Part shown: piece by piece, positions 4,800-30,536 of the stretch
Layout: each line of letters begins with the position of its first letter
How positions within the stretch are numbered: position 1 is the stretch's first letter
Source: Gammaproteobacteria bacterium
Lineage (GTDB): Bacteria > Pseudomonadota > Gammaproteobacteria > Tethybacterales > G965206325
Direction of reading: 5' to 3'
Length of the DNA stretch: 64,000 bases
Assembly: GCA_965206325.1 (NCBI GenBank)
Contig: OZ242208.1
Coordinates: 678,326-742,325 of the forward strand
Program-made: the position numbers and the translations under genes
The notes under the pieces: generated by a model
The model's input: the letters and a program-made list of their open reading frames with translations, nothing else
The model's database searches: none
Told to the model about the DNA's origin: nothing

Positions 4800-7520
4800 T
4801 TACAGCAGCAAGGGGTCTTCGCGGTCGGCGTTTATGTTGTATTTTTTAATCGCTTCGCGCGCGAACTTGGAATCCATCTCACCTTCTTCGGCAAGAATAG
4901 AAAGCGCGGCAAGAACAATCACTCCGCGATCCACTTCAAAATGACGGCGCAAATTCTCCCGCGTGTCCGAACGGCCAAAGCCGTCCGTGCCGAGCGTCGC
5001 ATAGCGTCCCGGCACAAAAGGGCGAATTTGCTCGGCGTAAAGTTTAATGTAGTCGGTCGCCGCAATTGCGGGACCTTTGGCTTTTGCCGATGCAAATTGC
5101 TGAGCGACAAAATTCATTCGCGGCTTTTCGCCCGGATGAAGCATATTGTATCTTGCGCATTCGCGTCCGTCGCGCGCGAGAAGATTAAAACTTGTCGCGC
5201 TCCAAACATCGGCGGCGACTCCGAAATCATTTTCCAGCAACTCGGCGGCGGCGAGCGATTCGCGCAGAATGGTTCCACCTCCTATTAATTGAGTCCGCGC
5301 CTTGGGCTTTTTTAATGGGCTGATTCGCACGCGATGAAGTCCGCGCAAAATGTTTTCTTCCGCGTTTTCGGGAAGGGGGGGGTGGCGGTAATTCTCGTTC
5401 ATCAAGGTGATGTAATAAAATGCATCTTCGCGCTCAACAAACATTCGCCGCATGCCGTCGTGGATAATCACGGCGAGTTCATAGGCGAAAGCCGGATCGT
5501 AAGATCGGCAATTGGGAATTAATGACGCTTGAATTTGGCTGTGTCCGTCTTCGTGCTGAAGGCCTTCGCCGTTTAATGTTGTGCGGCCGGCGGTCGCCCC
5601 GAGCAGAAATCCGCGCGCGCGAATGTCGCCCGCCGCCCATGCAAGGTCGCCGATTCTTTGGAATCCAAACATGGAGTAAAAAATAAAGAAGGGAATCATC
5701 GGCGTGCCGTAATGGCTGTATGCGGTGGCGGCGGCAATCCATGACGACATCGCGCCGGCTTCGTTAATGCCTTCCTGCAGAATCTGCCCGTTTTTTTCTT
5801 CGCGGTAATACATTAACTGGTCGGCGTCTTCGGGGCGATAACGCTGCCCTTTCACCGAATAAATCGCCAACTGCCGAAACAGCCCTTCCATTCCGAAGGT
5901 GCGCGATTCATCCGGCACAATCGGGACAACGCGGCCGCCGATTTTCTTGTCGCGCACAAGGGCGGTGAGGATTCGCACAAAGGCCATCGTCGTGGAAAAT
6001 TCCCGCTTGCCCGAATCTTTCAGCAAAGCGTCAAACGCCGACAGCGGCGGAATTTCCAAAGGCGAAGAATCGCGACGCCGAGTCGGCACCGACCCCCCCA
6101 TGGCTTTAATTCGCGCGCGCAGATAATTCATTTCGGGCGAATCATCGGGCGGGCGAAACAGCGGCACTTCATCAATTTTATCGTCGGGAATCGGCACGCC
6201 GAGCCGGTTGCGGACTCGCCGCAATGCTTCGTCGCTGATTTTTTTCTGCTGATGAACAATGTTGCGGGCTTCGCCGGCGTCGCCCATTCCATAGCCCTTA
6301 ATTGTTTTGGCAAGTATGACTGTGGGCTGACCGCGATGATGCGTCGCCGAATGATAAGCGGCGTAAACTTTATGCGGATCGTGTCCGCCGCGATTTAATC
6401 GCCAAATATCCTTGTCCGTCATGTGCGCGACCATCGCCCGCAATTCGGGATGAGCGCCGAAAAAATGCTCGCGAATATAGCCGCCGTCGCTGGCGCGATA
6501 AGTTTGATAATCGCCGTCGACCGCTTCTTCCATTCGCCGCATTAGAATTCCGTCTTTATCCTGCGCGAGAAGAGAATCCCAAAACGACCCCCATATCACT
6601 TTAATGACATTCCAGCCGGCACCGCGGAAAGCGGATTCTAATTCTTGGATGATTTTGCCGTTGCCTCTCACCGGCCCATCTAAACGCTGCAGATTGCAAT
6701 TGACGACAAAGATAAGATTGTCTAATTCTTCGCGGGCGGCGAGGGAAATCGCGCCCATGGATTCCGGTTCATCCATTTCGCCGTCGCCCATAAACGCCCA
6801 CACTTTGCGGTCGGAAGACGGCACAATTCCGCGGTTTTCCAAATACCGCATAAATCGCGCCTGATAAATTGCCTGAATGGGGCCGAGTCCCATGGATACC
6901 GTCGGAAATTGCCAGAAGTCCGGCATCAGCCACGGATGCGGATACGAGGGCAATCCGCCGCCGCCGGTTTCCTGACGGAAATTCAAAATCTGCTCTTCGG
7001 AAAGACGCCCCTCCAAAAAAGCGCGGGCGTAAATTCCGGGAGCGGAATGGCCTTGAAAATAAATAAGATCGCCGTAATTTTCCAATCCCTTTTCCGCGAG
7101 GGCGGGAATGGATGCGCGAAAAAAATGATTGAATCCCGCGTCGTAGAGAGTCGCCGCCGATGCAAAAGAAGCGATATGCCCGCCGAGGTCGCCCTCTTTG
7201 CGATTCGCCCGCACGACCATCGCCAGCGCATTCCATCGCACATATGAGCGAATGCGATGCTCCAATTCCTGATCGCCCGGCGAAGCCGTCTGATGCCCCG
7301 GCGGAATCGTATTAATGTAGGCGGTGTTGGCGGAATAAGGCAAATACGCCCCATTGCGCCGCGCCTGATCAATCAATTTTTCCAGCAGGAAATGCGCGCG
7401 CGCCGCTCCTTCGCGGGCGAGAACGCCTTCCAGCGCATCCAGCCATTCTTGCGTTTCTTGCGGGTCGGCGTCTTCGGCGGATGCCGACTCGCCGCTGGGT
7501 TTGATATCTTCTGCTTCCAT
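4800..7520 (-). CDS. aceE: pyruvate dehydrogenase E1 component, homodimeric type
   Basis: 906 aa with typical AceE regions (GHIASFASAATLYD, MGDGEMDEPESMGA and a transketolase-like C-terminal half). No aceF or lpdA is adjacent. Confidence 0.9.
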   Translation of the reverse strand: MEAEDIKPSGESASAEDADPQETQEWLDALEGVLAREGAARAHFLLEKLIDQARRNGAYLPYSANTAYINTIPPGHQTASPGDQELEHRIRSYVRWNALAMVVRANRKEGDLGGHIASFASAATLYDAGFNHFFRASIPALAEKGLENYGDLIYFQGHSAPGIYARAFLEGRLSEEQILNFRQETGGGGLPSYPHPWLMPDFWQFPTVSMGLGPIQAIYQARFMRYLENRGIVPSSDRKVWAFMGDGEMDEPESMGAISLAAREELDNLIFVVNCNLQRLDGPVRGNGKIIQELESAFRGAGWNVIKVIWGSFWDSLLAQDKDGILMRRMEEAVDGDYQTYRASDGGYIREHFFGAHPELRAMVAHMTDKDIWRLNRGGHDPHKVYAAYHSATHHRGQPTVILAKTIKGYGMGDAGEARNIVHQQKKISDEALRRVRNRLGVPIPDDKIDEVPLFRPPDDSPEMNYLRARIKAMGGSVPTRRRDSSPLEIPPLSAFDALLKDSGKREFSTTMAFVRILTALVRDKKIGGRVVPIVPDESRTFGMEGLFRQLAIYSVKGQRYRPEDADQLMYYREEKNGQILQEGINEAGAMSSWIAAATAYSHYGTPMIPFFIFYSMFGFQRIGDLAWAAGDIRARGFLLGATAGRTTLNGEGLQHEDGHSQIQASLIPNCRSYDPAFAYELAVIIHDGMRRMFVEREDAFYYITLMNENYRHPPLPENAEENILRGLHRVRISPLKKPKARTQLIGGGTILRESLAAAELLENDFGVAADVWSATSFNLLARDGRECARYNMLHPGEKPRMNFVAQQFASAKAKGPAIAATDYIKLYAEQIRPFVPGRYATLGTDGFGRSDTRENLRRHFEVDRGVIVLAALSILAEEGEMDSKFAREAIKKYNINADREDPLLL

Positions 7521-7585: not shown

Positions 7586-8725
7586 TTAGCGCGCCGAATC
7601 GCCGTCGTTATTTTCCGGCGCAACGCCGAGAATTTTTTCAATCTTGGCGAGATGACGGCGGCTGGCGTCGTCGCAGCCCGCTTCCTCCGCAATGATATGC
7701 AGCCGACGGTAAAAATCCCTCCGTCCGGCAAGCGGGAGTCCGCGCAGATTTTTCAAGGCGGCTTGTTCTTTTTTTTCGGCGGCGGCGATGCCGTTTTCGC
7801 GGACGAATTTAATCGCCTTGTGCGCATCGCTTTCGCCGACCAGCCGGACTAAAGATTTCTGCTCCGATTTGGAAAGCACATTGTCGGATGCAAAAAGCAT
7901 AAGCAGGCACCATACTCGCGCCTGCGAAACGGCTTTTTCGGAATGTGCTCCAAAGCCGCCCTTTTCGGCGGCGGCGAAATCCCGGAGAATGCGATCGTCC
8001 AATTCCGCCGCCGACAGCGGGGCTTCTTTTTTTTCGCCCCGCCAGCGGTAAAACGGCTCGCTCATCGCAAACCAATGCAGCGCGCGGGCGCGCAGCGGTA
8101 GAATCGGATGCGTGCCGAAAACGGCGGATTCATCGCCCGCCGCCATCACTTCCTTCGCCTGCCGCAGATAAGATGCGGCATCAAGATTCAAATGACGGGA
8201 AGACAGACCGCTTGCAGTTTTTACAATCGCCGCAAAGGCGTCCTTTTCCAACGGCGCACAGACAAATCCCGCTCGGTCCGCGCTGATTTCCGCCGCCCGC
8301 TGCGAATGCAAAAGCGCCAGCGCGCCAAGCCCCCGCGCCGACCCGGCGGGCGGACGGCGGTGATGTCCGAAAAGATAATGGCCGATTTCGTGGCCGATGA
8401 CAAAGCGCAATTCATCCGCGCTCATCAAATCAACCAGACCGGAAGAAACGACGACGGCAAAGAGAACTTCGCCGCCCAGCGGAACGCACCACGCCTGCGG
8501 AATTGGGCCGCTTCTTGCATAGAATTCAATCGTGTGCGCGGCGCGCAGATTTTTCGCGACCGCCCGCATCGCCGAATGCAATTCGGGAAGCAGCGGCTCC
8601 GTTATGCGAACATCATGCGAAAGTAGGCGGATTCGCTCCCTGCGTCCGCGCGCGGAAAAAGATGCGCCGGAAGATTCAAATTCATCCGGCGAATCTTCGG
8701 CATAGCGCAGCGATTCAATTTCCAT
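7586..8725 (-). CDS. M48/HtpX-like Zn metallopeptidase domain protein with TerB-like C-terminal region
   Basis: HExxH motif (VIGHEIGHYLFGHH) and downstream HPILPLRARAL. The C-terminal helical region looks TerB-like. Last gene of the atypical Hsp70 operon. Confidence 0.55.
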   Translation of the reverse strand: MEIESLRYAEDSPDEFESSGASFSARGRRERIRLLSHDVRITEPLLPELHSAMRAVAKNLRAAHTIEFYARSGPIPQAWCVPLGGEVLFAVVVSSGLVDLMSADELRFVIGHEIGHYLFGHHRRPPAGSARGLGALALLHSQRAAEISADRAGFVCAPLEKDAFAAIVKTASGLSSRHLNLDAASYLRQAKEVMAAGDESAVFGTHPILPLRARALHWFAMSEPFYRWRGEKKEAPLSAAELDDRILRDFAAAEKGGFGAHSEKAVSQARVWCLLMLFASDNVLSKSEQKSLVRLVGESDAHKAIKFVRENGIAAAEKKEQAALKNLRGLPLAGRRDFYRRLHIIAEEAGCDDASRRHLAKIEKILGVAPENNDGDSAR

Positions 8726-9851
8726 CGCGGCAGTGTTTTTTGCGCGCTTCGGCGATTAAATTGCACATCAATTTCGCCCGCTCCCGCACTTTGGAATCGT
8801 GGTGAGTGACGCGGGAATTCCACTTTCCGTATTCGCGCAGAAGATGTTTTTTAATTTTTTCGGGGCTCATTCCCGGCGTAATCCCAATTTCGTCTTCCAA
8901 GTTAATTTCATCCTCGCTCGGCGGCGGCAAGTGACGGTCGGTTAGCGAGCGAAACCGATCTATGTCTATCCCCAATTCCGAGGCGATTATTTTGAGGATT
9001 CGCATTTCCGACTTGTGCGCTTCGTCGTCAATGCCCGCGACTTTCACGCACAACTCAAGAATGCCGAAGCAAGCGGACTCGCTTAAAACTTCGCGCGCGC
9101 GGCGGGCGAGTGCAGCGGCTTGCGAATCATCCGGCGGCGAAATTGCCGCATCCATAAAAATTTGCCAAAGTCGCTCGTAGGCGTCATCGCGTTCATCTTC
9201 ATTACTGGTCGCCGAAAATTTTCGAATCCAAGTGCGAATCAATCCGCGTTCATTCGGATGCACTTCGCCGTCGGCCCCGGCAATCGCCACCGCCAATTGA
9301 ACTTTCAGCCGCCCAAATTCCTGATGCTCCCCCAAATAACCCGGCTCTTTGCTTTCTACTAAAAAGGATTTGCATTTTGCGGAAGTGATGATCATTTCAC
9401 CGGTTGTCACTATCGCACGAAATTCGAGAGTCCGCCTGCCCGTGCGAGGAAAGCGCAAAGCGCGAATCGGAATCGGCGGAAGCCGTGCATCCTCCCTGAA
9501 AGAGACCGCGCGATGCAGGGAAATTTGCGGCGAAGTAGTGAACGAAAAAATCGGCGAATCCTCCGCCTGTAATTGCGCAATTTCACAAAGCACCGGCTCG
9601 CCGTCAGCGTCGTCAGTGATGTCCGAAAGGCGCAAATGTATGCGATGCGCACAGTGGTCATGAGGAAAAAACAGCGACCCCGCAATGCGGGGAACGAAGC
9701 AATCAAACTCCTTAAAGACCTCGCGCGAAACGCTGAGCGAAAACGGCTTAACCCCCGGCGCATCGCCGCCGTTTTGCCCGCCGCCGCCCGCCGACTTGTA
9801 AATCAGCCAGCTGACCCCCCAAACGATTAGAAAACCGATAAGCCATTCCAC
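8715..9851 (-). CDS. DjlA-like membrane co-chaperone candidate: N-terminal TM helix, two TerB-like repeats, degenerate C-terminal J-like domain
   Basis: N-terminal MEWLIGFLIVWGVSWLI is a TM segment. AIAGADGEVHPNERGLI and VKVAGIDDEAHKSEMRIL resemble DjlA/TerB repeats. The C-terminal GMSPEKIKKHLLREYGKWNSRVTHHD resembles a J domain with HPD replaced by HHD. Confidence 0.45.
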   Translation of the reverse strand: MEWLIGFLIVWGVSWLIYKSAGGGGQNGGDAPGVKPFSLSVSREVFKEFDCFVPRIAGSLFFPHDHCAHRIHLRLSDITDDADGEPVLCEIAQLQAEDSPIFSFTTSPQISLHRAVSFREDARLPPIPIRALRFPRTGRRTLEFRAIVTTGEMIITSAKCKSFLVESKEPGYLGEHQEFGRLKVQLAVAIAGADGEVHPNERGLIRTWIRKFSATSNEDERDDAYERLWQIFMDAAISPPDDSQAAALARRAREVLSESACFGILELCVKVAGIDDEAHKSEMRILKIIASELGIDIDRFRSLTDRHLPPPSEDEINLEDEIGITPGMSPEKIKKHLLREYGKWNSRVTHHDSKVRERAKLMCNLIAEARKKHCRDGN

Positions 9852-9866
9852 AGCGATTCTCCCGAT

Positions 9867-11420
9867 TTATTCAATCGTCAAGTCGTCCAAGTCGTGCTTG
9901 CGGGCGGCGTTGGCATCGGCATCGCGCTCGCCTTTTAAGTTTAGGCGGATTTCATGCGATTTGCCGCTTTCCACATCTTCAAAGCGGCAGTGCAGAACTT
10001 GGCTTTCGTCGCAGGTATAGGTGATTTTAACTGGCTGTCCCGCCGGACGATTAGGGGGCAATTCCAAATCTTTCTCGTAGATCGGCTTCATATATTCGGG
10101 GTCTTTCTCCTCCCCTTGAGTCACATTGCACTTGATGGTGCGCTGTCCATCCGCAATGGTGTAAAAGGTATCTTCGGCAGTCGTCGGCAGCGGGGTGTTT
10201 TTTTCAATAATGATGACATTTGTTCGCTTCATCGTTTCGCCGTCTACGGTAATCGTGCCATAACTGTCATTCACCACATCGGTCACTTTGCGCGATTGCA
10301 ATTCCCGACGCGCCGATGCCGACACCGATTCCGGCCGCTCGCGCACGGCGGCGAGTCCGGCGCTAATCGCCGCGCCCATTGCCACCGCTTCGTCGGGATT
10401 AATTCCCGTCACCGGCTTCTTGCCGAACATTCGCTCCACCGAGGCGACAACGGCGGGAATGCGCGTGCTGCCGCCGACCAGCAGAATTTCATCGATCGCG
10501 TCCGGTTTTAAATTCGCGTCGTCCATCGCTTTTTCCACCAGCAATTCAGTTCTGGCGATGTAAGTGGAAATTGCCTCTTCAAAGCGAGCGCGCGGAAAAT
10601 CCAAGCGGATTCTTTCGCCGCCTGCCCGGTTTTCGAGCAGTACCGGGTATTTATCCTTTTTGGACAGGGCGCGCTTAACTTTCTCCGATTCCTGCTCCCA
10701 TTTGTAGCGCGGATTTTCGCCTTCGTCATTGTCGGTCGCGCACAATTCCTCGCCGGTTTTGGTGCGATATTCCTCCTCAAATATCTTCAGCAATTCGCGG
10801 TCAAAATCGCAGCCGCCAAGATGGGCGTCGCCCTGCGAAGTGATGATTTTAATGTCGCGTCCGCGCGCTTCCAAAATCGTCACATCAAAGGTGCCGCCGC
10901 CCAAATCAAAAACCAGATAGCAGCCGTTTAACGCATGCTCGGTCGCGTAGGCGATAGCCGCCGCCGTCGGTTCGTTGACGATATGAATCACATCCAGCCC
11001 GGCGAGCCGTCCGGCTTCCATCGTCGCCTTGCGGTCCTCCTCCTTGAAATAAGCGGGCACCGAAATGGCGACAGGTCCAACGCCTCCCTTGTGTTCAACG
11101 CCGCCGCTGACCGTTTTCTTGAGAATCAGCGACGACAAATCGGCGGGCGAATACTCTTTGCCGCCAATGATTTGGCGATAGGCGAGATTGTGCATCTCCC
11201 GCTTGATTTCCTTTACTAGGCGGTCTTCGGGATATCTGCCCGCGGCGTCTTTCGCCTCTCCGCCGATGGAGACGCGTTCATCTCCTTCAAATAAAATTAG
11301 CGACGGCGTAATGCGTTCGCCGTCGGTGTTCGGCACGATTTCGGGCTTGCCGAGTTCGTTCAAAATCGCCGCCGCCGAATTGGTGGTGCCGAGGTCAATG
11401 CCGGTGATGTGCTTTGCCAT
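9867..11420 (-). CDS. Hsp70-family ATPase lacking the C-terminal lid (HscC-like, 517 aa)
   Basis: Hsp70 NBD signatures GIDLGTTNSAAA and DLGGGTFDVTIL. A beta-sandwich SBD is present but no helical lid. Confidence 0.85.
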   Translation of the reverse strand: MAKHITGIDLGTTNSAAAILNELGKPEIVPNTDGERITPSLILFEGDERVSIGGEAKDAAGRYPEDRLVKEIKREMHNLAYRQIIGGKEYSPADLSSLILKKTVSGGVEHKGGVGPVAISVPAYFKEEDRKATMEAGRLAGLDVIHIVNEPTAAAIAYATEHALNGCYLVFDLGGGTFDVTILEARGRDIKIITSQGDAHLGGCDFDRELLKIFEEEYRTKTGEELCATDNDEGENPRYKWEQESEKVKRALSKKDKYPVLLENRAGGERIRLDFPRARFEEAISTYIARTELLVEKAMDDANLKPDAIDEILLVGGSTRIPAVVASVERMFGKKPVTGINPDEAVAMGAAISAGLAAVRERPESVSASARRELQSRKVTDVVNDSYGTITVDGETMKRTNVIIIEKNTPLPTTAEDTFYTIADGQRTIKCNVTQGEEKDPEYMKPIYEKDLELPPNRPAGQPVKITYTCDESQVLHCRFEDVESGKSHEIRLNLKGERDADANAARKHDLDDLTIE

Positions 11421-12086
11421 TTATTTTTTCTCCGTTTTGCCGCTGTCGGTGGACTTCGCTTCTTCCGCCTGCGGCGGCGAAAAGTGCCAAACCTTTACGC
11501 GCGCCTTTCGCCAGACAATTCCGTCGTCGGCATCGTCGCGTTTGTGCAGGACTCCACTTCTGGTGACTTCGCAAATTTTTCCGTCATCTTCCTGCCGCTG
11601 CGTTTCTTTGGCGCTCGCGACTTCCGCGCGACGGCGCCAATCGTCAAAGGTGTCGCCGACTTTCGGACGAATCCGTTCGCTGTCAAATTTTTCCAGCAGA
11701 AATTCGGCGAGTTGCCGGACATCAGCATACCACGCTTTTTCTTCGCCGGGTTTCGCGCGATTATTTTCGCGCTCTTCAAGATAATCAAGGAAGTCGGCCA
11801 CCTCGCCGAGCACCGCCTTGTGCTTGGATAAATCGTATCCTTCGCGCCATCGCTGCAATTCTTTTTCCTTTCCGGCGACAAAATCGCGCACGCCGCGCAG
11901 CTGCTCATCAATTTCGCCGATGCCTTTGTGCAGGGTGGATTCCAGCGCGGCAATTTTTTCCGCCTGCGCCGCAAATTGCTCGCGGATTAGCGACTCCAAT
12001 CTGCGATAATCGCCGCCGGATTCGTCCGCTTGCGGGGCCGAATCAGCGTCCGGCGAATCGTTGGGCTGTTTTTCGTCGTCCGTCAT
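11421..12086 (-). CDS. GrpE-like nucleotide exchange factor candidate
   Basis: Acidic disordered N-terminus, a long coiled coil, and a C-terminal beta-rich segment (KICEVTRSGVLHKRDDADDGIVWRKARVKV) that parallels the GrpE C-terminus. Its stop abuts the Hsp70 start. Confidence 0.5.
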   Translation of the reverse strand: MTDDEKQPNDSPDADSAPQADESGGDYRRLESLIREQFAAQAEKIAALESTLHKGIGEIDEQLRGVRDFVAGKEKELQRWREGYDLSKHKAVLGEVADFLDYLEERENNRAKPGEEKAWYADVRQLAEFLLEKFDSERIRPKVGDTFDDWRRRAEVASAKETQRQEDDGKICEVTRSGVLHKRDDADDGIVWRKARVKVWHFSPPQAEEAKSTDSGKTEKK

Positions 12087-12426: not shown

Positions 12427-13482
12427 TCAATGCGTTAATTCTCCCGCCGCATATTTTTCCGCCATTGCATCCAAAGGAAGAGGCGTTATTTTTTCCGCCT
12501 GACCCGCCGTGCCGAAGGCGTGGAATCGCTCTTCGCACACTTCGCGCATTTTGGCGATTGCCGGCTTGTTAAATTTGCGCGGATCAAATTCGCGCGGATT
12601 CTCAGCGGCGACTTTGCGATACTGCCCGATAATCGCCATTCGGCAGTCGGTGTCTATGTTGATTTTGCGCACGCCGTGCTTGATGCCGACGACAATTTCC
12701 TCCACCGGCACGCCCCAAGTTTGCGGCATTTCGCCGCCGTGCCGATTAATAATCTCTTGCAATTCCTGCGGCACCGATGAAGATCCATGCATCACCAAAT
12801 GCAGCGACGGCATTTTGCCGTTGATTTGCCTGACGACATCAATCGCCAGAATCGCCCCGTCCGGCTTTCGGCTGAATTTATACGCTCCGTGCGATGTGCC
12901 GATGGCGACCGCCAAAGCGTCCACCTGAGTCGCGCGGACAAATTCAGCGGCTTGGGCGGGATCGGTCAATAGCATTTCTCGGCTTAATTTTCCTTCTGCG
13001 CCGTGTCCGTCTTCGGCTTCGCCCTCGCCGGTTTCCAGCGAGCCGAGGCAGCCCAATTCGCCTTCCACCGAAACGCCGACCAGATGCGCCGTCTCGGCGA
13101 CCTGCCTTGTCACGCGCATATTGTATTCGTAGTCGGCGGGTGTTTTGGCGTCTTCCATAAGCGAGCCGTCCATCATTACGCTGGTGAATCCGTTGGCGAT
13201 TGCCGACAGGCAAGTGCGCGGATTATTGCCGTGATCCTGATGCATGCAGACGGGAATGCGCGGATGCATTTCCACCGCCGCCTGCATTAATCGTCGCAGA
13301 AAAACATCGCCGGCGTATTGGCGGGCGCCGCGGCTCGCCTGAATAATAACGGGCGCGGAAGCGGAATCGGCGGCTTGCATAATCGCCTGAATCTGCTCCA
13401 TATTATTGACATTAAACGCCGGCACGCCGTAGTTGTTTTCGGCGGCGTGATCCAGCAATTGCCGCAGCGAAATGAGGGCCAT
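12427..13482 (-). CDS. fba: fructose-bisphosphate aldolase class II
   Basis: [30 protein letters not shown] and the rest match class II FBA over full length. Start placed at MALIS. Confidence 0.9.
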
Positions 13483-13615
13483 TTTGTTTTCTCCTTTTGA
13501 ATAAATTCGCCGCCCCATTTTAGCAGAACGACGGTTATAACGAAAAAATAGTGAAGTAGCGGCGCATGTTAAAGTTTTCCGCGAGTATAATGCACCTGCC
13601 CAAGTAAAATGAAAT

Positions 13616-14182
13616 ATGGCGAGCGACGATTTTCTCTCAACAGAAGTGACTGAATTCCGCGCCCAGAACGCGAGAGATGCCCGCCGCTTTCTGGCGTCTT
13701 TTATCAGCGATGGCGCGATGGCGGGGGACTTGCTTGCCTTGGACTACGAAGAGGCAGCGGTACTTGTTCACGACTCGATGCGCCGGAAAATTGGTGGCTT
13801 GCCGATGGGTTGTTTTCTCTTGTCGACCCGCCTCGCGCCCTCAAGCGGTTCGGACGCGGCCGGACCGAATCCGAACGATGAAGACACTGCCCTGATTTTG
13901 TTGCGTGTTGTCGGCCGCGCGCAATTGCCCAATCGTGCCGACACGGATAAATACCGTCTAGACGCGGCCCTGCGCGCTATCGACAGCCCCGAAAACTGGG
14001 ACACTGAAAACAAAACCGACCAGTTCACGCTCAACCGACTCCGGCACGCAGGCGTTCGTTGCGCTGTGCTAGGCACTTTTCGCATGGAGTTGGAGCAACT
14101 GAAAGATAATTGGCGTCTGGGGTTTGGCGCCGACATTTCCAATTTCTACTCCGGCCAGGGGATGAAGGTTTACGGCGGATAG
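13616..14182 (+). pseudogene. 5' fragment of a HerA-like ATPase gene interrupted by an IS30-family element
   Basis: 188-aa ORF whose stop codon TAG is supplied by the first 3 nt of the IS inverted repeat. Removing the IS under two of three boundary models fuses it in frame to ORF 15183-16784. Confidence 0.55.
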
Positions 14183-15174
14183 TCATACTCAGTGCAACAC
14201 TGAATGGAGGTTGCGTTGGGCAAACGATTAACATTGGAAAAGCGACAGTTGATTGAGGGGCATCTGTCGGACGAGAGGTCGCTGCGGTGGATAGCGAGGG
14301 CTTTGGGCGTATCGGCATCGACCATCAGCCGCGAAGTGCGGCGCAATGGTGGGTGCGATGGTTATGATGCGGTGAGTGCGCAAGTGCGCTCGGCGGTAAT
14401 GCGGGTGGGGATTGGGCCGCCGTTGGTGTCGGGGATGGCGTGGTCGGCGGCGCAAGCGGAGTTGGCGAAGCGGCATAGTCCGGAGCAGATTGCGGGGCAT
14501 CGGTCGGATATTAGCGCGTCAACCATTCGCCGTCGGATAGCGGTGGAGCGGCTGCAGGGCGGAATGTCGCATCGGCATTTGCGGCGACGCGGCAAGCAGC
14601 GATTGTCGGCGGCGGCGCGCGCATTATGCCGCTGCAACAATATTCCGCATCGGATTCATTATGGACACCGCCCATTGGCGGCTGACGCGCGCAGCGAGAA
14701 TGGTCATTGGGAAATGGATACCATGTGGGATATCGGCACGCATGGTCGCGCTGGCGCCCTTGTCTTAACAGACCGCAAAAGCCGCCTGACTTGTCTGGCA
14801 GCGTTGCCGAAACGCACCGCCCGCGCCGTTGCGCAAGCCGCTGTCACTCTGCTGAAGCCTCACCCGTGCCACTCCATCACCGCCGACAACGGCGGCGAAT
14901 TCGCCAAGCATCATCTTATTACCCAAGCCCTCGGCGCGCCGGTGTTCTTTACCGATCCGGGCAGTCCCTGGCAGCGCGGCACCTGCGAAAACACCATCAG
15001 CCTAATCCGCGACCTCACCCCCAAACAGCGGCTCGGCTCAATGAACCCCGCCGCAATCCGCCGTATCGCCAATGCCATCAATCATCGACCAATGAAACTT
15101 CATCACTGGCAAACCCGATTCATGGCATCATCGCAACCATAACTTACCGTTGCACTGAGTATGACTATCCACAT
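14174..15174 (+). mobile_element. IS30-family insertion sequence, copy 1 (about 1.0 kb)
   Basis: Terminal inverted repeats GGCGGATAGTCATACTCAGTGCAAC and GTTGCACTGAGTATGACTATCCACAT (19-bp perfect core). It is 100% identical to the segment 18169-19169. Possible 2-bp AC target duplication. Confidence 0.85.
14204..15142 (+). CDS. IS30-family DDE transposase
   Basis: 312 aa with an N-terminal HTH and a DDE region (HWEMDTMW...ITADNGGEF...PGSPWQRGTCENTISLIRD) typical of IS30 transposases. Confidence 0.85.
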   Translation: MEVALGKRLTLEKRQLIEGHLSDERSLRWIARALGVSASTISREVRRNGGCDGYDAVSAQVRSAVMRVGIGPPLVSGMAWSAAQAELAKRHSPEQIAGHRSDISASTIRRRIAVERLQGGMSHRHLRRRGKQRLSAAARALCRCNNIPHRIHYGHRPLAADARSENGHWEMDTMWDIGTHGRAGALVLTDRKSRLTCLAALPKRTARAVAQAAVTLLKPHPCHSITADNGGEFAKHHLITQALGAPVFFTDPGSPWQRGTCENTISLIRDLTPKQRLGSMNPAAIRRIANAINHRPMKLHHWQTRFMASSQP

Positions 15175-15182
15175 ACAAACCG

Positions 15183-16784
15183 ATGGGGGGCGCTCTGTCG
15201 CGCATCGTCAACTTTACCAAACCAGCAGGCGATCCGCATCCGCTTTCCGGCAAGTCGGTGCCGGTCGGGCGTGTGCGCTACTGTTCCAGCGAAATCGCCG
15301 TCAACGCGAAACGCGACAATGTTCCCGTGACGATGGATCCCACCGACCTGTTGGCCCGGCGCACCGCGCTGTTTGGCATGAGCCGCAGCGGAAAATCCAA
15401 TACTATCAAGACCGTGTCGGCCGCCATTTTTATGTTACGCGATCACGACCCCAATTTGGGCCGCATTGGGCAGTTGATTTTTGACACTAATGGTGAGTAC
15501 TGCAACGACAATCCGCAGGATAACGGCTGCTTACGAAATGTCTGGCGCGAGACCCGAAAAACTGCTCAAGGCGATGTTGTCACTTACGGTTTGCATCCGC
15601 ACCCCAATGATCTAAATCGTCGACTGGTGAAAGTCAATTTCTTCGGAGAAACGCCGACGGCTTGGTCGGACCGGGAAAGCGTTGCGTCGGCGATGGACAT
15701 GTTGCTTGCCGGTAAGGCCATTATTGACGAGAGTATGCCGACGGAGGGTGCGCACTATGTCAAAAATTTCCTCAACACCGCGATGGATCTCCCGCCAGAA
15801 TGGGACAAGGGGACTCAAATACGCTATCAGCGATGCGTCATCGTCTATCGCGCTCTACTGTTCGGAGCGGGGTTTGCACCGCCACAAAATATGGGACAGG
15901 CAAACATTGCCGGGTTGTTTGGAAAAAATATCCGGGAATCCCTTGATGCTGCTGGCTATGAAGCGACGGCTGCAACATTCGAGAAACATCAGGTTGAGTG
16001 GACGTCTCTGGTTGCATCGCTGAAAGATCTGCGGAAATTTTTGTCGTCCGACGCAGGAATGAATTTCGACAAGCTCTGCTCCGAAAGCTCGCGTGGTAAG
16101 AGCTGGAGCGACGATAGGCTTGTGGGGTTGCTTTCGCTTCTCGAGCGCCCACAGGGGATCGCACGGTTGCGCGGGCTGAAAACGCAGCACAGCCCAGATG
16201 TGTCGGTTGACTACGCGGTTAAGATTGTCGACGATCTTGTCGCAGGACGGCTTGTCATCATGGACCAGTCGACCGGTGCTCCGGATTTGATTCAACGAGC
16301 CTCGGAGCGCATTATGTGGGAATTATTTAACCGCCAAAAGGAAACGTTTATCTCGCCGGCCCGAGATAAAAACGATGAGTTGGTTCTAGACGAAAACAAC
16401 AACATCAAACCGCCACCCGATGTTATCGTTTACGCAGAGGAGGCGCACAATCTCTTGCCCGCAAAGAATGCTGATCTTTCTTCGGTATGGGCGCGCATCG
16501 TCAAAGAGGGATCCAAGTTCCACATCGGCATGGTGTATTCCACTCAAGAGCCGAGCTCCATCCTGTCCAACATCCTCAAGAACACCGACAATTGGTTTGT
16601 GGCTCATCTCAACAATCAGGATGAGATGCGCGAGCTCAGGAAGTATTACGACTTCGAGATGTTCGCCGGACAGATTTTGAAAGTGCCTGATACCGGATTC
16701 GTGCGGATGCGCTGCCTGTCTAATCCTTATATCGTCCCAATTCAGGTCGACCGATTCGCCATGAAACTCGAGGAGGGGAAATAG
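15183..16784 (+). CDS. HerA/FtsK-superfamily ATPase (DUF87-like), 3' portion of the IS-split gene
   Basis: Walker A GMSRSGKSNT and Walker B VIVYAEEAHNLLP (hhhhEEAH type typical of HerA/DUF87). Lower GC and different codon usage than flanking core genes. Confidence 0.6.
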   Translation: MGGALSRIVNFTKPAGDPHPLSGKSVPVGRVRYCSSEIAVNAKRDNVPVTMDPTDLLARRTALFGMSRSGKSNTIKTVSAAIFMLRDHDPNLGRIGQLIFDTNGEYCNDNPQDNGCLRNVWRETRKTAQGDVVTYGLHPHPNDLNRRLVKVNFFGETPTAWSDRESVASAMDMLLAGKAIIDESMPTEGAHYVKNFLNTAMDLPPEWDKGTQIRYQRCVIVYRALLFGAGFAPPQNMGQANIAGLFGKNIRESLDAAGYEATAATFEKHQVEWTSLVASLKDLRKFLSSDAGMNFDKLCSESSRGKSWSDDRLVGLLSLLERPQGIARLRGLKTQHSPDVSVDYAVKIVDDLVAGRLVIMDQSTGAPDLIQRASERIMWELFNRQKETFISPARDKNDELVLDENNNIKPPPDVIVYAEEAHNLLPAKNADLSSVWARIVKEGSKFHIGMVYSTQEPSSILSNILKNTDNWFVAHLNNQDEMRELRKYYDFEMFAGQILKVPDTGFVRMRCLSNPYIVPIQVDRFAMKLEEGK

Positions 16785-16788
16785 TCCG

Positions 16789-18117
16789 ATGCCTTACGAA
16801 AGGGAGGTCGCCAGCGGCGACAGTTTGATTTGGCTGAAAAACAGCGAGGTTTTGCGGGAGTTCAAAGGAATCATCCAGCGTCGAGAAGAAATCCCTCAAT
16901 TTCCCCCGCCGCTGCTGACGGATATTAAGCGCATCGGTTGGTGGCCGCGGCGAGTCATCGCAGTGGACGGCTCCAACATCGTCCAGCGCGTCAACAACGG
17001 CTTTCCGGGGGCCGAGGCGGGGTTGATGATGGTTTCAGTCGTCTCCATCAAATTAGAGATGCTGCGCGCTATCGCACCCGGGACGATTCCCAGCCCGGCG
17101 ATTTTTCACAATATGGAAAACGCCTGCACCTTGGAAGCCGCCGTGCCGGGCATTGGCGTGGTGCGCCGCGATGTCAAAAACGACTCGCCGAAAGAATTCT
17201 TTCGGCACTGCGTCTACGAAGTGCTGTCCGGCACTGTTGCCGGAAACCATGAAAGTTTGCTAGAAACGCTACGCGCTATCGATGAAAAACGGAAAATTGA
17301 AATTCCATGTCCCATCGATGGGTGCAGCGAACACTTTGTCCGCCAGCAAGGGAAATACTGCTGCAACTGCCAAAGACATGAAACAATGTTTGAGACGGAT
17401 GCCCTGCGATTGCATCAATACTTTCAAGACATCGGCGGTAGCGGCGAAGCGCACGGACGACTACGGGATGTATTGGAGCTTTTAGTGCTACTGAATATTC
17501 TGCGGTTCTTCGCGGAAAAGGAGCCGGCGTATCTCGCCGACTGTGCCTTTGTATTGGACGGTCCCCTCGCTGTGTTCGGGGCTCCGGCCTCCATTTTGCG
17601 GTCGGTCCGCAACGAGTTTGTGCGCTTGAATGAAAAGGCCCGGTCATTTAACAAGCAGGATATTGTCGTATTCGGCATTGAAAAATCCGGTCGCTTTTTC
17701 GAGCATTGGGAGGAAATTGACTGGGACGATGAAAAAGGGCCGCGTCGTCGGTTTCCTACCGGCACTGTCCTTGCACTGGATAATGATTACATTTCCCGAA
17801 ATATCGTAGCATCCAGCGCCAAAAGTAAACCCTACGGCGAGGACACTTATTACGGCAGAAAGGTTTTTTACAAAACGCAGAAAGAAGAACATGTCGTTCT
17901 TAACACCGCTATGTTGAATACGACCGCACAGGATTTCAACCGGAATGACATGAAATGTTATCCACGCTTGGGTGACATTCTGGATGTGATGGATCAACTT
18001 GCGACCCATCTTTACCGCGACGGTTTCATGCCGTTGACGCGCGCACACGCGCACGCCGCCATTCCGCTGAAACGCGGAGCTGACATCATCAAGAGTTTGT
18101 TGGAGGACAGCGCGTGA
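16789..18117 (+). CDS. NurA-like nuclease candidate partner of the HerA-like ATPase
   Basis: Begins 5 nt after the ATPase stop. N-terminal VIAVDGSNI matches the NurA (I/V)DGS catalytic motif. Internal Cys cluster CPIDGC...CCNC is zinc-ribbon-like. Confidence 0.4.
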   Translation: MPYEREVASGDSLIWLKNSEVLREFKGIIQRREEIPQFPPPLLTDIKRIGWWPRRVIAVDGSNIVQRVNNGFPGAEAGLMMVSVVSIKLEMLRAIAPGTIPSPAIFHNMENACTLEAAVPGIGVVRRDVKNDSPKEFFRHCVYEVLSGTVAGNHESLLETLRAIDEKRKIEIPCPIDGCSEHFVRQQGKYCCNCQRHETMFETDALRLHQYFQDIGGSGEAHGRLRDVLELLVLLNILRFFAEKEPAYLADCAFVLDGPLAVFGAPASILRSVRNEFVRLNEKARSFNKQDIVVFGIEKSGRFFEHWEEIDWDDEKGPRRRFPTGTVLALDNDYISRNIVASSAKSKPYGEDTYYGRKVFYKTQKEEHVVLNTAMLNTTAQDFNRNDMKCYPRLGDILDVMDQLATHLYRDGFMPLTRAHAHAAIPLKRGADIIKSLLEDSA

Positions 18118-18168: not shown

Positions 18169-19169
18169 GGCGGATAGTCATACTCAGTGCAACACTGAAT
18201 GGAGGTTGCGTTGGGCAAACGATTAACATTGGAAAAGCGACAGTTGATTGAGGGGCATCTGTCGGACGAGAGGTCGCTGCGGTGGATAGCGAGGGCTTTG
18301 GGCGTATCGGCATCGACCATCAGCCGCGAAGTGCGGCGCAATGGTGGGTGCGATGGTTATGATGCGGTGAGTGCGCAAGTGCGCTCGGCGGTAATGCGGG
18401 TGGGGATTGGGCCGCCGTTGGTGTCGGGGATGGCGTGGTCGGCGGCGCAAGCGGAGTTGGCGAAGCGGCATAGTCCGGAGCAGATTGCGGGGCATCGGTC
18501 GGATATTAGCGCGTCAACCATTCGCCGTCGGATAGCGGTGGAGCGGCTGCAGGGCGGAATGTCGCATCGGCATTTGCGGCGACGCGGCAAGCAGCGATTG
18601 TCGGCGGCGGCGCGCGCATTATGCCGCTGCAACAATATTCCGCATCGGATTCATTATGGACACCGCCCATTGGCGGCTGACGCGCGCAGCGAGAATGGTC
18701 ATTGGGAAATGGATACCATGTGGGATATCGGCACGCATGGTCGCGCTGGCGCCCTTGTCTTAACAGACCGCAAAAGCCGCCTGACTTGTCTGGCAGCGTT
18801 GCCGAAACGCACCGCCCGCGCCGTTGCGCAAGCCGCTGTCACTCTGCTGAAGCCTCACCCGTGCCACTCCATCACCGCCGACAACGGCGGCGAATTCGCC
18901 AAGCATCATCTTATTACCCAAGCCCTCGGCGCGCCGGTGTTCTTTACCGATCCGGGCAGTCCCTGGCAGCGCGGCACCTGCGAAAACACCATCAGCCTAA
19001 TCCGCGACCTCACCCCCAAACAGCGGCTCGGCTCAATGAACCCCGCCGCAATCCGCCGTATCGCCAATGCCATCAATCATCGACCAATGAAACTTCATCA
19101 CTGGCAAACCCGATTCATGGCATCATCGCAACCATAACTTACCGTTGCACTGAGTATGACTATCCACAT
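18169..19169 (+). mobile_element. IS30-family insertion sequence, copy 2 (identical to copy 1)
   Basis: Identical to 14174-15174 at a constant offset of 3995 nt, including both inverted repeats. Confidence 0.85.
18199..19137 (+). CDS. IS30-family DDE transposase (second copy)
   Basis: Translation is identical to 14204-15142. Confidence 0.85.
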   Translation: MEVALGKRLTLEKRQLIEGHLSDERSLRWIARALGVSASTISREVRRNGGCDGYDAVSAQVRSAVMRVGIGPPLVSGMAWSAAQAELAKRHSPEQIAGHRSDISASTIRRRIAVERLQGGMSHRHLRRRGKQRLSAAARALCRCNNIPHRIHYGHRPLAADARSENGHWEMDTMWDIGTHGRAGALVLTDRKSRLTCLAALPKRTARAVAQAAVTLLKPHPCHSITADNGGEFAKHHLITQALGAPVFFTDPGSPWQRGTCENTISLIRDLTPKQRLGSMNPAAIRRIANAINHRPMKLHHWQTRFMASSQP

Positions 19170-19184
19170 GGTCCCTATTACGCG

Positions 19185-20240
19185 ATGTTCCCTGTAGGGT
19201 TTGCCAAGCAGATTGTCGAAACCATGTGTCCCCTTGACGGCGGTGTTTTGGATCCGTTCTGCGGACGAGGCACCGCACCGTTTGTGGCGCAGGCAACCGG
19301 AAGATTCGCACTTGGCTTAGATATCAACCCGGTAGCGTGGGTTTTCGCCATAGTGAAAACTCATCCCGAACCGAATGCCGAACGAGTCATCCACCGGTTG
19401 GACGATGTCCGCCGAGCGTCAAGGGTGCGCGACGCTAAGCACTGCAATGAATTCCAGCGGTGGGCGTGGTCATCTGATGTCCTCCGCTTTCTGAAAACCG
19501 CGCGGCGCGTCTTGGATTGGGAGAACGATAAGGTTGACCGAACTCTGATGGGCTTCATTCTGACGCATGTCCACGCCAAGATTGGTGATGGCATCAGCAA
19601 CCAAATGCACAAATCGCGTGCGCTGGGGCCGGATTATGCAGTCCGCTGGTGGAAAGAACGCAATATGCCTCCCCCAGACATAAACCCAATCATCTTTTTG
19701 CGTAACCGCATTTTGTGGCGCTACTGTCATGGCGTGGTACGCAATCGCGCGCCGGAAATAATTTTAGAGCGCGCTGAAAAAGTGCTTCCTCGCCGCCGCA
19801 CCGCGCGATTTGATCTGTTGCTGACTTCACCGCCGTATTTCAATGTCACCGACTATCGACAGGATAGCTGGATTCGCCTGTGGATGCTGAAAAAAGGGCC
19901 AGCCTTACCGAATTGGAAGTCAGACCTTAAGTTTGCGCGGCGCAGTGCTTACCAACCCATGCTGGAAAATGTCTTTTCCAGTGCGGTTCACCTAATGAAA
20001 CCGGGTTGTGCAATTTGGGTGCGAACCAGTGCGCGCAAATTCACGAGGGAAGCGACCATTGCAGCTATTCATGCATCCTGGCCTCGGAGAAAACTTTATT
20101 TGCGCCTAGATTTTCCGAAAATCCCCACACAAACGGCACAATTCGGGCACACTTCGTCCAAGCCGACCGAAATGGATCTGCTCATCGCGCGCCAAGGTAT
20201 GCCGCCCCCGAGGGGGTTTACGCCGTTTCGTTCGGATTGA
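19185..20240 (+). CDS. DNA methyltransferase, N4-cytosine/N6-adenine class (motif I N-terminal, SPPY motif IV)
   Basis: Motif I VLDPFCGRGTAPF near the N-terminus and motif IV LLLTSPPYFNVTDY. The frame is open upstream into the IS, so the first Met (19185) after the IS end was taken as start. The native 5' end may have been altered. Confidence 0.6.
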   Translation: MFPVGFAKQIVETMCPLDGGVLDPFCGRGTAPFVAQATGRFALGLDINPVAWVFAIVKTHPEPNAERVIHRLDDVRRASRVRDAKHCNEFQRWAWSSDVLRFLKTARRVLDWENDKVDRTLMGFILTHVHAKIGDGISNQMHKSRALGPDYAVRWWKERNMPPPDINPIIFLRNRILWRYCHGVVRNRAPEIILERAEKVLPRRRTARFDLLLTSPPYFNVTDYRQDSWIRLWMLKKGPALPNWKSDLKFARRSAYQPMLENVFSSAVHLMKPGCAIWVRTSARKFTREATIAAIHASWPRRKLYLRLDFPKIPTQTAQFGHTSSKPTEMDLLIARQGMPPPRGFTPFRSD

Positions 20241-28942: not shown

Positions 28943-29290
28943 TTATATCAGCGAGTCGGTTTTCGCCGCGCAGATAAAATCGTTTTCCGAAAGCCCGCCG
29001 ACGCTGTGAGTCGTCCATGCAATTCGGCAGCGATTGTAGCCGAAATGAATTTCCGGATGATGATTTTCCGCGTCGGCAAAGGCGGCGACGGCGTTGACAA
29101 AATCCAAAGTCCGCTTGTAATCGCCGAAGCGAAATTCGCGGACGAGTTGATTCCGCCCTTTGGAATCGGGAATCGCCGCCCATTCCGAATTAATCGCCGC
29201 CGTCAATTCGGCGATGGATTTTTCATCCGGCGGTATTTTCGCCGGTTTGCATTTTCGTCCGGCGAGGGAAATTTTTTGCGCGTCATTCAT
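28943..29290 (-). CDS. 4a-hydroxytetrahydrobiopterin dehydratase
   Basis: HHPEIHFGYNRCRIAWTTHSVGGLSENDFICAAKTD matches the PCD family. Confidence 0.75.
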   Translation of the reverse strand: MNDAQKISLAGRKCKPAKIPPDEKSIAELTAAINSEWAAIPDSKGRNQLVREFRFGDYKRTLDFVNAVAAFADAENHHPEIHFGYNRCRIAWTTHSVGGLSENDFICAAKTDSLI

Positions 29291-30533: not shown

Positions 30534-30536
30534 CGG

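Follow-up and report, generated by a model that had tools for sequence, protein, structure and literature searches.

Three types of prokaryotic Hsp70 are recognised, DnaK, HscA and HscC, and of these HscA and HscC work without an exchange factor (PMC8215388); DnaK derivatives with shortened or deleted lids have been called unexplored "dark matter" (PMC13580251). The HPD motif of the J domain is treated as a universal and indispensable signature of Hsp70 co-chaperones, and sequences lacking it were removed from a large survey of J-domain proteins (PMC10410713). Here, an operon of four genes (g1 to g4) was analysed in a stretch of 64,000 nucleotides (the window; contig OZ242208.1 of GenBank assembly GCA_965206325.1, positions 678,326 to 742,325 of the forward strand) from a gammaproteobacterium (GTDB Tethybacterales, G965206325). 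The operon encodes a GrpE-like protein, a lidless Hsp70, a membrane-anchored protein with a TerB domain and a predicted J-like domain, and an M48 metallopeptidase. As judged from profile alignment, HPD is replaced by N-x-R in the family of the J-like protein, and the adjacent Hsp70 has lost residues with which DnaK contacts a J domain, which suggests a non-standard coupling of the Hsp70 to its helper. The favoured reading, held with moderate confidence, is that the operon is a self-contained, membrane-tethered Hsp70 system insulated from the housekeeping DnaK, DnaJ and GrpE.

A previous reading of the same DNA from its letters and open reading frames (the sequence-only reading) had described a dedicated atypical chaperone operon with a GrpE-like protein, a lidless Hsp70, a DjlA-like protein and an M48 peptidase, and the domain evidence agreed with this description: in hidden Markov model (HMM) searches the Hsp70, the TerB domain of g3 and the M48 peptidase scored above threshold, and GrpE was supported at the level of the family. 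The same reading did not know the four-gene combination as a described system, and full-text literature searches likewise found no description of the gene set, a 2012 comparative genomics study of the Ter system (which may mention TerB-chaperone contexts) lying outside their reach.

The g2 protein matched HSP70 (PF00012) with E=3.7e-102, the match stopping at profile position 505 of 599, and its alignment with E. coli DnaK ended at about DnaK residues 503–508, followed by the short tail. Because both the Pfam match and the DnaK alignment end before the helical lid, g2 was taken to lack it, in accordance with the earlier description of an Hsp70 with a complete nucleotide-binding domain and beta substrate-binding domain and no lid. 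The beta substrate-binding domain was complete (alignment through DnaK residues ~394–503), with Q433 and P419 invariant and hydrophobic residues in the pocket, and the catalytic residues D8, K70, E171, D194, T199 and D201 (DnaK numbering) were kept in g2 and in 69/69 members of its clade. Identity was 32% to DnaK and 33% to HscC. The best NCBIfam matches of g2 were DnaK models, with scores far below their cut-offs (338.6 bits versus 648 for NF001413, 329.4 versus 822.55 for TIGR02350). The clade comprised about 69 clusters (500–528 amino acids (aa), 41–81% identity), whose scores in the homology search, 382 bits or more, were well clear of those of canonical DnaKs (about 290). Its C-terminal pattern (Table 1) was present in 60 of the 69 members and in 50 of 69 metagenome copies, the remainder being near variants. 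Eukaryotic Hsp70s carry EEVD docking tails, and by analogy the tail motif of g2 could dock on a partner, for example the beta-sandwich of g3. Just outside the clade, further Hsp70 derivatives were noted (P0070–P0076, P0085 and P0091–P0096), some of 860–876 aa with a C-terminal extension of about 300 aa without a Pfam match, others of about 666–678 aa whose precomputed Pfam matches include vWA-type families.

In the AlphaFold2 (AF2) model of g3 (mean predicted local distance difference test score (pLDDT) 79.6), a transmembrane helix, a beta-sandwich, a TerB domain and the J-like helices followed one another; AF2, the Pfam TerB match and Foldseek agreed on the DjlA-like layout (N-terminal transmembrane segment, TerB, C-terminal J-like domain) that had been proposed for this protein. 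An N-terminal hydrophobic segment was found in 93 of 113 full-length relatives, and from the basic residues after the helix of g3 an N-out/C-in topology is probable. In Foldseek searches the beta-sandwich retrieved generic immunoglobulin-like sandwiches only (reeler, BslA, arrestin N-lobe; probability at most 0.99, E about 5e-3), and the TerB domain retrieved the TerB-like structure 2h5n with probability 1.00. The protein has one TerB domain, inside which two DG...E motifs lie, in place of the TerB repeats that the sequence-only reading had seen.

The C-terminal helices of g3 lay at residues 318–322, 330–345 and 353–373 of the AF2 model, and in a fragment model of residues 296–378 the helices were predicted at pLDDT 83–91. 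When the fragment model was compared with 350,542 PDB chains by Foldseek, the best-ranked matches were mostly J domains (root mean square deviation ~2.1–4.4 Å over 52–63 columns, probability at most 0.98), among them the entries 2dmx, 6rzy, 2dn9, 6u3r, 4j80 and the DnaK-bound 5nro_B and, by protein, DNAJB8, PFA0660w, Tid1, DNAJB6 and T. thermophilus DnaJ. Alignment of 149 g3-family C-termini with ten J domains (four of them from the E. coli genome) by hhalign was gap-free, with P=2.5e-4. Weak DnaJ Pfam matches were obtained for 3/37 g3-family members, and 5/37 matched RPT, which presumably shares a Pfam clan with DnaJ. The C-terminal domain of g3 is thereby predicted to have a J-domain fold, namely a short helix I and a hairpin made of helices II and III and the loop between them.

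The hhalign alignment paired K-W-N-S-R of g3 with K-Y-H-P-D of the J domains, and, as in DnaJ, the loop between helices II and III was 8 residues long. Since the profile alignment is gap-free and the loop lengths are equal, N-S-R was assigned as the equivalent of HPD. Among 150 g3-family representatives, K343 was conserved in 92%, W344 in 99%, N345 in 88% and R347 in 89%, H occurred at the HPD position in 2/150, and N-x-R was present in 79/79 metagenome relatives. The sequence-only reading had taken HHD for a changed HPD; this tripeptide lies five residues past N-S-R, at the C-terminal end of the loop, and is poorly conserved among the same 150 representatives (H in 41%, then S or P, then D in 78%). 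HHD as a degenerate HPD was ruled out by the gap-free alignment, the equal loop lengths and this poor conservation.

In the known complex, H33 of HPD bonds the backbone of the DnaK linker residue L391, P34 packs against P419 and D35 bonds R167 and Q378, K48 of J-domain helix III pairs with D477, and D481 of DnaK clamps onto R167/I168 (PMC8215388). At the R167 position, members of the g2 clade carry G (34), A (19), S (6), R (5) or H (4), g2 itself having H; among 51 Hsp70s encoded beside N-x-R proteins the residues were G (40), F (5), A (4), H (1) and Y (1), with R in 0/51. The Q378 position is H, K or Y in the clade and S in g2, the D477 position S or T (T in g2), the D481 position N in 60/69 members and S in g2, and the linker VLLLD of DnaK is approximately I-K-L-T-D in the clade and R-K-V-T-D in g2. 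Because the residues lost are exactly the DnaK contacts of HPD and helix III, and the partner carries N-x-R, a co-evolved, insulated Hsp70/J-like pair is suggested. DnaK R167H was reportedly isolated as a suppressor of DnaJ D35N (Suh et al. are said to have described it in 1998); this suppressor lends meaning to the paired loss, and His is the very residue that g2 carries at the R167 position. The GrpE-binding loop of DnaK (G32, R34) is kept in the g2 clade and not in HscC, consistent with a dedicated exchange-factor gene beside g2.

The window copy of g1, read earlier as GrpE-like, was by itself a sub-threshold match to Pfam GrpE (PF01025; 18.5 bits, cut-off 25.8, E=1.7e-3) spanning profile positions 6–163 of 165. 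At family level, PF01025 was matched by 10 of 15 diverse members (best E=2.4e-10), and a g1-family profile searched against the PDB gave T. thermophilus GrpE (3a6m) as its top match over the full length (E=1.3e-4), followed by the GrpE 4ani (E=0.019); a smaller g1 alignment did not retrieve GrpE in the PDB profile search, and the broader one did. The family aligned in register with E. coli GrpE residues 88–194. Membership of the g1 family in the GrpE superfamily, which is characterised by a long helix, a four-helix bundle and a C-terminal beta domain, is thus supported by profile similarity at the level of the family.

The conservation of the operon was followed through g3, whose family profile was searched against 1.84 billion representatives and returned 1288 clusters with E<1e-3, or 601 when E<1e-30 was required, most of them full-length proteins (~380–420 aa); in longer relatives the extra domains were TerB only, plus one PEGA/CarboxypepD_reg tail. 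A metagenome scan seeded on g3 gave 197 relatives, from which 80 loci were kept for local HMM searches, and a scan of a genome collection gave one locus only. A clade Hsp70 lay directly upstream of the g3 homologue and on the same strand at 65/65 assessable metagenome loci, and a GrpE-like gene lay directly upstream of the Hsp70 at 43/43. An M48 gene followed the g3 homologue at 12/64, a figure that is not a population estimate, the metagenome loci being dominated by a few sediment lineages. At the seven loci seeded on Hsp70, the TerB/J-like gene was directly downstream in 7/7, with M48 next in 5/7 (L002, L004/5, L006, L007/8 and L009 have M48 after the g3 homologue). The conserved core is therefore of three genes (GrpE-like, Hsp70, TerB/J-like), and M48 is an accessory of one branch; the expectation that all four genes would be conserved together held for the first three and, for M48, in one branch only. 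The synteny of the three genes holds across unrelated genomic contexts. As M48 is absent in most members, proteolysis cannot be the core function. When the flanking open reading frames (ORFs) were clustered to look for a fourth or fifth gene at loci without M48, no further conserved neighbour was revealed in more than 9/64 loci. Neither a transcription factor nor a sigma/anti-sigma pair nor a two-component gene was conserved beside the operon.

Two branches were distinguished. Type A, to which the window's operon belongs, combines M48 with a short GrpE-like protein (~205–254 aa). In type B, M48 is absent and the GrpE-like protein is of about 430–500 aa with 1–3 hydrophobic segments, probably transmembrane, on the N-terminal side of the GrpE region (33/33 metagenome loci, such as L035 and L075, and likewise L003 568–1953 and L010 135–1472). 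We know of no description of a membrane-anchored GrpE. That both co-chaperones can be membrane-bound speaks for the cytoplasmic membrane as the place of work of the machine.

Individual loci varied in layout. At L002 (2887–12213) the full four-gene cassette (GrpE-like 204 aa, Hsp70 510 aa, TerB/J-like 405 aa, M48 368 aa) is inserted in opposite orientation between nuoG/nuoH and nuoF, inside the NADH dehydrogenase operon, which suggests horizontal movement of the cassette; an N6_N4 methylase gene and an HNH gene were seen a few kb away. At L096 (178–9953) the order is GrpE-like, Hsp70, M48, a second clade Hsp70 and TerB/J-like, the last encoding 571 aa with the motif T-W-S-S-R, followed by a 345-aa membrane protein and, on the opposite strand, a phage-type integrase. 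The Hsp70 gene is not preceded by a GrpE-like gene at L007/L008 and L009; upstream of it, both have a divergent lipoprotein-like gene (~252 aa) and a cluster of radical-SAM/SPASM and methyltransferase genes, and L009 has two TerB genes.

The g4 protein matched Peptidase_M48 (PF01435) with 65.5 bits (cut-off 20.3, E=7e-18). Since EISADR (146–151) and THP (205) are, like the HExxH motif, conserved in all aligned homologues, g4 is probably active. The family also has a conserved N-terminal LR[YF]xxDD motif. No transmembrane segment was found in g4, its sole hydrophobic peak (80–98) being a core strand of the M48 fold; an assignment to HtpX/Ste24-type membrane M48 peptidases was rejected on this ground and on HtpX equivalog scores of at most 21 bits against cut-offs of 245–422. 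The sequence-only reading had proposed an M48-TerB fusion. Its metallopeptidase part stood, and its TerB tail was not supported: hhalign of the C-terminal domain with the g3 TerB region was non-significant (P=0.017 over 28 columns), the Pfam TerB profile matched 1/5 g4 homologues at E=0.046, and the PDB profile search returned no TerB-like match. The C-terminal domain is absent from the 252–263-aa versions at L007 and L009.

At the DNA level, the packing reported earlier was borne out by the ORF coordinates and junctions: four consecutive minus-strand genes, g1-g2-g3-g4, span 7586–12086, the stop codon TAA of g1 abuts the ATG of g2, the GTG start of g3 comes after a 15-nucleotide gap that contains a GGGAG ribosome-binding site, and g3 and g4 overlap by 11 nucleotides. 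These tight junctions indicate translational coupling. The operon lies between aceE (4800–7520) and the class II fructose-bisphosphate aldolase gene fba (12427–13518), and the GC content across the region is uniform (0.55–0.56). Searches around the operon for a regulatory RNA, a promoter or a terminator gave nothing above background. Beyond fba, two IS30-family transposase ORFs bracket two genes; this HerA/NurA-like unit resembles a composite transposon and is possibly a defence pair. In the sister strain (L095) an S8 peptidase gene lies beyond fba instead, and the flank seems to be strain-variable. The 188-aa ORF next to the first IS30 copy had been considered as the N-terminus of an S8 peptidase split by IS30, which was ruled out as it has zero similarity to the peptidase of the sister strain. 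Elsewhere in the window, an ORF at 29286–30536 on the minus strand matched the M48 profile weakly (E=4.7e-5); this second, unrelated ORF probably encodes another M48-type peptidase of the genome, outside the operon.

Table 1. Coordinates of the operon genes, their domains and motifs, and neighbouring ORFs (positions in the window)
Feature	Position	Strand	Remarks
g1, GrpE-like nucleotide exchange factor	11421–12086	-	221 aa; N-terminus acidic, probably disordered
g2, lidless Hsp70	9867–11420	-	517 aa; nucleotide-binding domain, linker, beta substrate-binding domain, 15-aa tail
g2 His146, equivalent of DnaK R167	10983–10985	-	from alignment with DnaK
g2 C-terminal motif LDDLTIE-COOH	9870–9890	-	clade pattern hydrophobic-x-[IVLM]-[EDQ]-COOH
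g3, membrane-anchored TerB/J-like co-chaperone candidate	8715–9851	-	378 aa; GTG start
g3 transmembrane helix, residues 2–20	9792–9848	-	AF2 helix; mean Kyte-Doolittle 1.48 over 19 residues
g3 beta-sandwich, residues 38–167	9351–9740	-	AF2 strands
g3 TerB domain, residues 173–307	8931–9335	-	PF05099 E=1.1e-9, 39.1 bits versus cut-off 24.4, residues 186–302
g3 predicted J-like domain, residues 318–374	8730–8900	-	short helix I, helix II, 8-residue loop, helix III; helix IV absent
g3 N-S-R, residues 345–347, HPD-equivalent position	8811–8819	-	from gap-free hhalign alignment
g3 HHD, residues 350–352	8796–8804	-	C-terminal end of helix II-III loop, five residues past N-S-R
g4, M48-type zinc metallopeptidase, soluble	7586–8725	-	379 aa; C-terminal helical domain
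g4 HExxH zinc-binding/catalytic motif HEIGH, residues 112–116	8378–8392	-	conserved in all aligned homologues
g4 C-terminal domain, residues 255–379	7589–7963	-	~125 aa, helical; one DG-x-L-S-x-x-E-Q-like motif
188-aa ORF	13616–14182	+	just upstream of first IS30 copy; no Pfam match
IS30-family transposase ORFs	14204–15142 and 18199–19137	+	312 aa each; identical Pfam match profiles
Genes between the IS30 copies	15183–16784 and 16789–18117		HerA/DUF87-type ATPase (533 aa); 442-aa protein, weak NurA match E=0.0028
ORF with N6_N4 DNA-methylase fragment	18702–20240		after the IS30-bracketed pair

If the favoured reading holds, g3 would sit in the cytoplasmic membrane in the N-out/C-in orientation of DjlA, with beta-sandwich, TerB and J-like domain facing the cytoplasm, and the J-like domain would dock g2 through a rebuilt interface in which N-x-R takes the place of HPD and the Hsp70 has lost R167, Q378, D477 and D481. 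Stimulation of the g2 ATPase by the J-like domain would be part of this cycle, in which g2 would hydrolyse ATP and grip clients with its lid-free beta domain, so that fast binding and release would be expected, and g1 would reset g2 through nucleotide exchange. In the branch of the window, the co-translated g4 would most likely cleave or degrade clients held by the chaperone, or might itself be controlled by it. The likely role would lie at the inner membrane face, in the quality control of proteins or in regulated proteolysis.

Several points weigh against this reading. The Foldseek E-values for the J-like fold (0.3–2) are individually non-significant for so small a domain, and the hhalign probability for J-domain similarity is 43%. 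Lacking HPD, the J-like domain might tether the Hsp70 without stimulating its ATPase, or have another binding partner. Most family members lack M48, and the analysis turned up no client, regulator or stress-responsive promoter for the operon. The data show the order of the genes, the identities of their domains, the motif losses in both partners, the conserved core of three genes and the membrane anchors; physical docking of g2 and g3 is something we infer, as are the client, the physiological role and which component controls which.

The sequence-only reading had also allowed for a defence module, and in its full form this explanation holds that a membrane-held Hsp70 senses foreign or misfolded proteins and switches on M48 or another response, leading to abortive infection. 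The cassette does look mobile, given its place inside the nuo operon at L002 and beside a phage-type integrase at L096; its distribution across phyla is patchy, and next to the window copy lies an island that varies between strains and contains two IS30 copies, a methylase fragment and the HerA/NurA-like pair. Ter and further defence contexts are among those in which TerB domains are found (PMC7824862), and lidless DnaK-like domains are fused to protease-effector defence modules (PMC12642450). Direct support was nevertheless not obtained: PADLOC-DB 2.0 gave no match for g2 or g3, only PtuA at E=0.053 for g1, and for g4 a motif-level capP match (E=2e-4, 48 residues around HExxH). The neighbours are mostly housekeeping genes with no other gene conserved nearby (at most 9/64 loci), and most of the systems have neither a protease nor a recognisable toxic effector. 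No relatives were found on viral contigs, by which a viral origin of the cassette was rejected as well. An anti-phage or conflict system is on this balance unlikely.

A signalling device, in which the TerB/J-like protein senses an envelope or metal signal and the Hsp70 cycle gates an M48/M56-like protease that cleaves a regulator, was considered after the models of DjlA acting into Rcs, of BlaR1 and of DnaK-controlled sigma-32 turnover. M48/M56 relatives act as signal-transducing proteases, the two DG...E motifs of the g3 TerB domain are typical of proposed ligand or metal sites, and the LR[YF]xxDD motif and extra C-terminal domain of g4 could be regulatory; the layout of g3 resembles that of DjlA, which has been linked to Rcs signalling (PMC11709261). 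We hold this to be quite improbable, because a signalling device is hard to reconcile with M48 missing in most members and with the lack of any conserved transcription factor, sigma/anti-sigma pair or two-component gene beside the operon. Decay or divergence of a housekeeping DnaK-GrpE-DnaJ operon would account for the gene order, which recalls grpE-dnaK-dnaJ, and for the DnaK models as best NCBIfam matches of g2. It would not account for a lidless g2 scoring 338.6 bits against a DnaK cut-off of 648, for a clade set apart from canonical DnaKs, or for a g3 without HPD, glycine/phenylalanine-rich (G/F) region and zinc finger; four intact ORFs and motifs conserved over hundreds of clusters argue against decay, and this explanation is regarded as extremely improbable.

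What was rated as new here, and as short of categorically new, is an Hsp70 system whose distinct co-chaperone lacks HPD and has probably co-evolved with it. Should the insulated Hsp70/J-like pair be real, the J-like arginine would sit where D35 is, opposite an Hsp70 that gave up R167, Q378 and D481, and the contact polarity might then be inverted, which would give a circuit orthogonal to DnaK/DnaJ. The N-x-R family (601 clusters at the stricter threshold), standing beside an Hsp70 without HPD readers, would then be a natural experiment on the triggering of Hsp70 by J domains and would provide a ready-made orthogonal Hsp70/J pair; concrete and testable single-residue predictions follow from it. 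The operon also gives one of the "dark matter" DnaK derivatives defined partners, namely an exchange factor, a membrane adaptor and a protease. The most far-reaching version, a fourth class of bacterial Hsp70 machine with HPD-less coupling and inverted contact polarity, acting as a membrane sensor or extractor that feeds or gates M48, possibly in stress or phage defence, seems doubtful and is put forward tentatively.

Compared with the DnaK-DnaJ-GrpE system, the operon has an Hsp70 with all catalytic residues, a GrpE-superfamily factor and a J-type partner in the same gene order; it differs in that its Hsp70 is lidless with R167, Q378, D477 and D481 replaced, and in the peptidase gene attached to it. 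Unlike DnaJ, g3 has N-x-R and a membrane anchor, and lacks HPD, the G/F region, the zinc finger and the DnaJ-type client-binding domains. With DjlA, a class C J-protein of E. coli, g3 shares the N-terminal anchor, TerB, the C-terminal J-type domain and probably the N-out/C-in topology. DjlA, however, has a canonical HPD and works with the housekeeping DnaK, whereas g3 has N-S-R, an extra beta-sandwich of 130 aa, no helix IV and its own Hsp70 gene adjacent; against the NCBIfam DjlA model (NF006948) g3 reached 24.6 bits (cut-off 162), over the TerB part only.

Like HscC, g2 is a specialised paralogue of low identity, with a deletion in the nucleotide-binding domain at DnaK 76–101 and a smaller one near D211, and, as in HscC with DjlB/DjlC, it has a short C-terminal tail of acidic/aliphatic character and a dedicated J partner that is membrane-associated. 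In HscC, R167 and a shortened lid are retained, the partners have HPE, and there is neither an exchange factor nor GrpE-binding features (PMC8215388). The HscC type named by the sequence-only reading, and with it a placement of g2 in the HscC subfamily, was rejected: the lid is wholly absent, H stands at 167, an exchange factor is encoded by the adjacent GrpE-like gene, the partner carries N-x-R and identity to HscC is 33%.

The mitochondrial import motor (mtHsp70, Pam18, Pam16 and Mge1) is membrane-tethered and includes a GrpE-type factor and the HPD-less Pam16. As a functional analogy, it shares with the operon a membrane-tethered Hsp70 cycle, a GrpE-type factor and an HPD-less J-like protein; in the motor, Pam16 acts alongside a genuine J protein, and both R167 and a lid are present in mtHsp70, whereas the operon has no second J protein and no translocase gene. 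The EACC1-protease modules likewise combine a lidless Hsp70 with a protease, and sensing rather than refolding has been proposed for them (PMC12642450). These modules are fusions that share about 50% identity with DnaK, and their partners are proteases of the caspase type and pore-forming effectors (PMC12642450); the operon, in contrast, has no EACC1-like effector, keeps its genes separate and sets an M48 metallopeptidase beside its lidless Hsp70.

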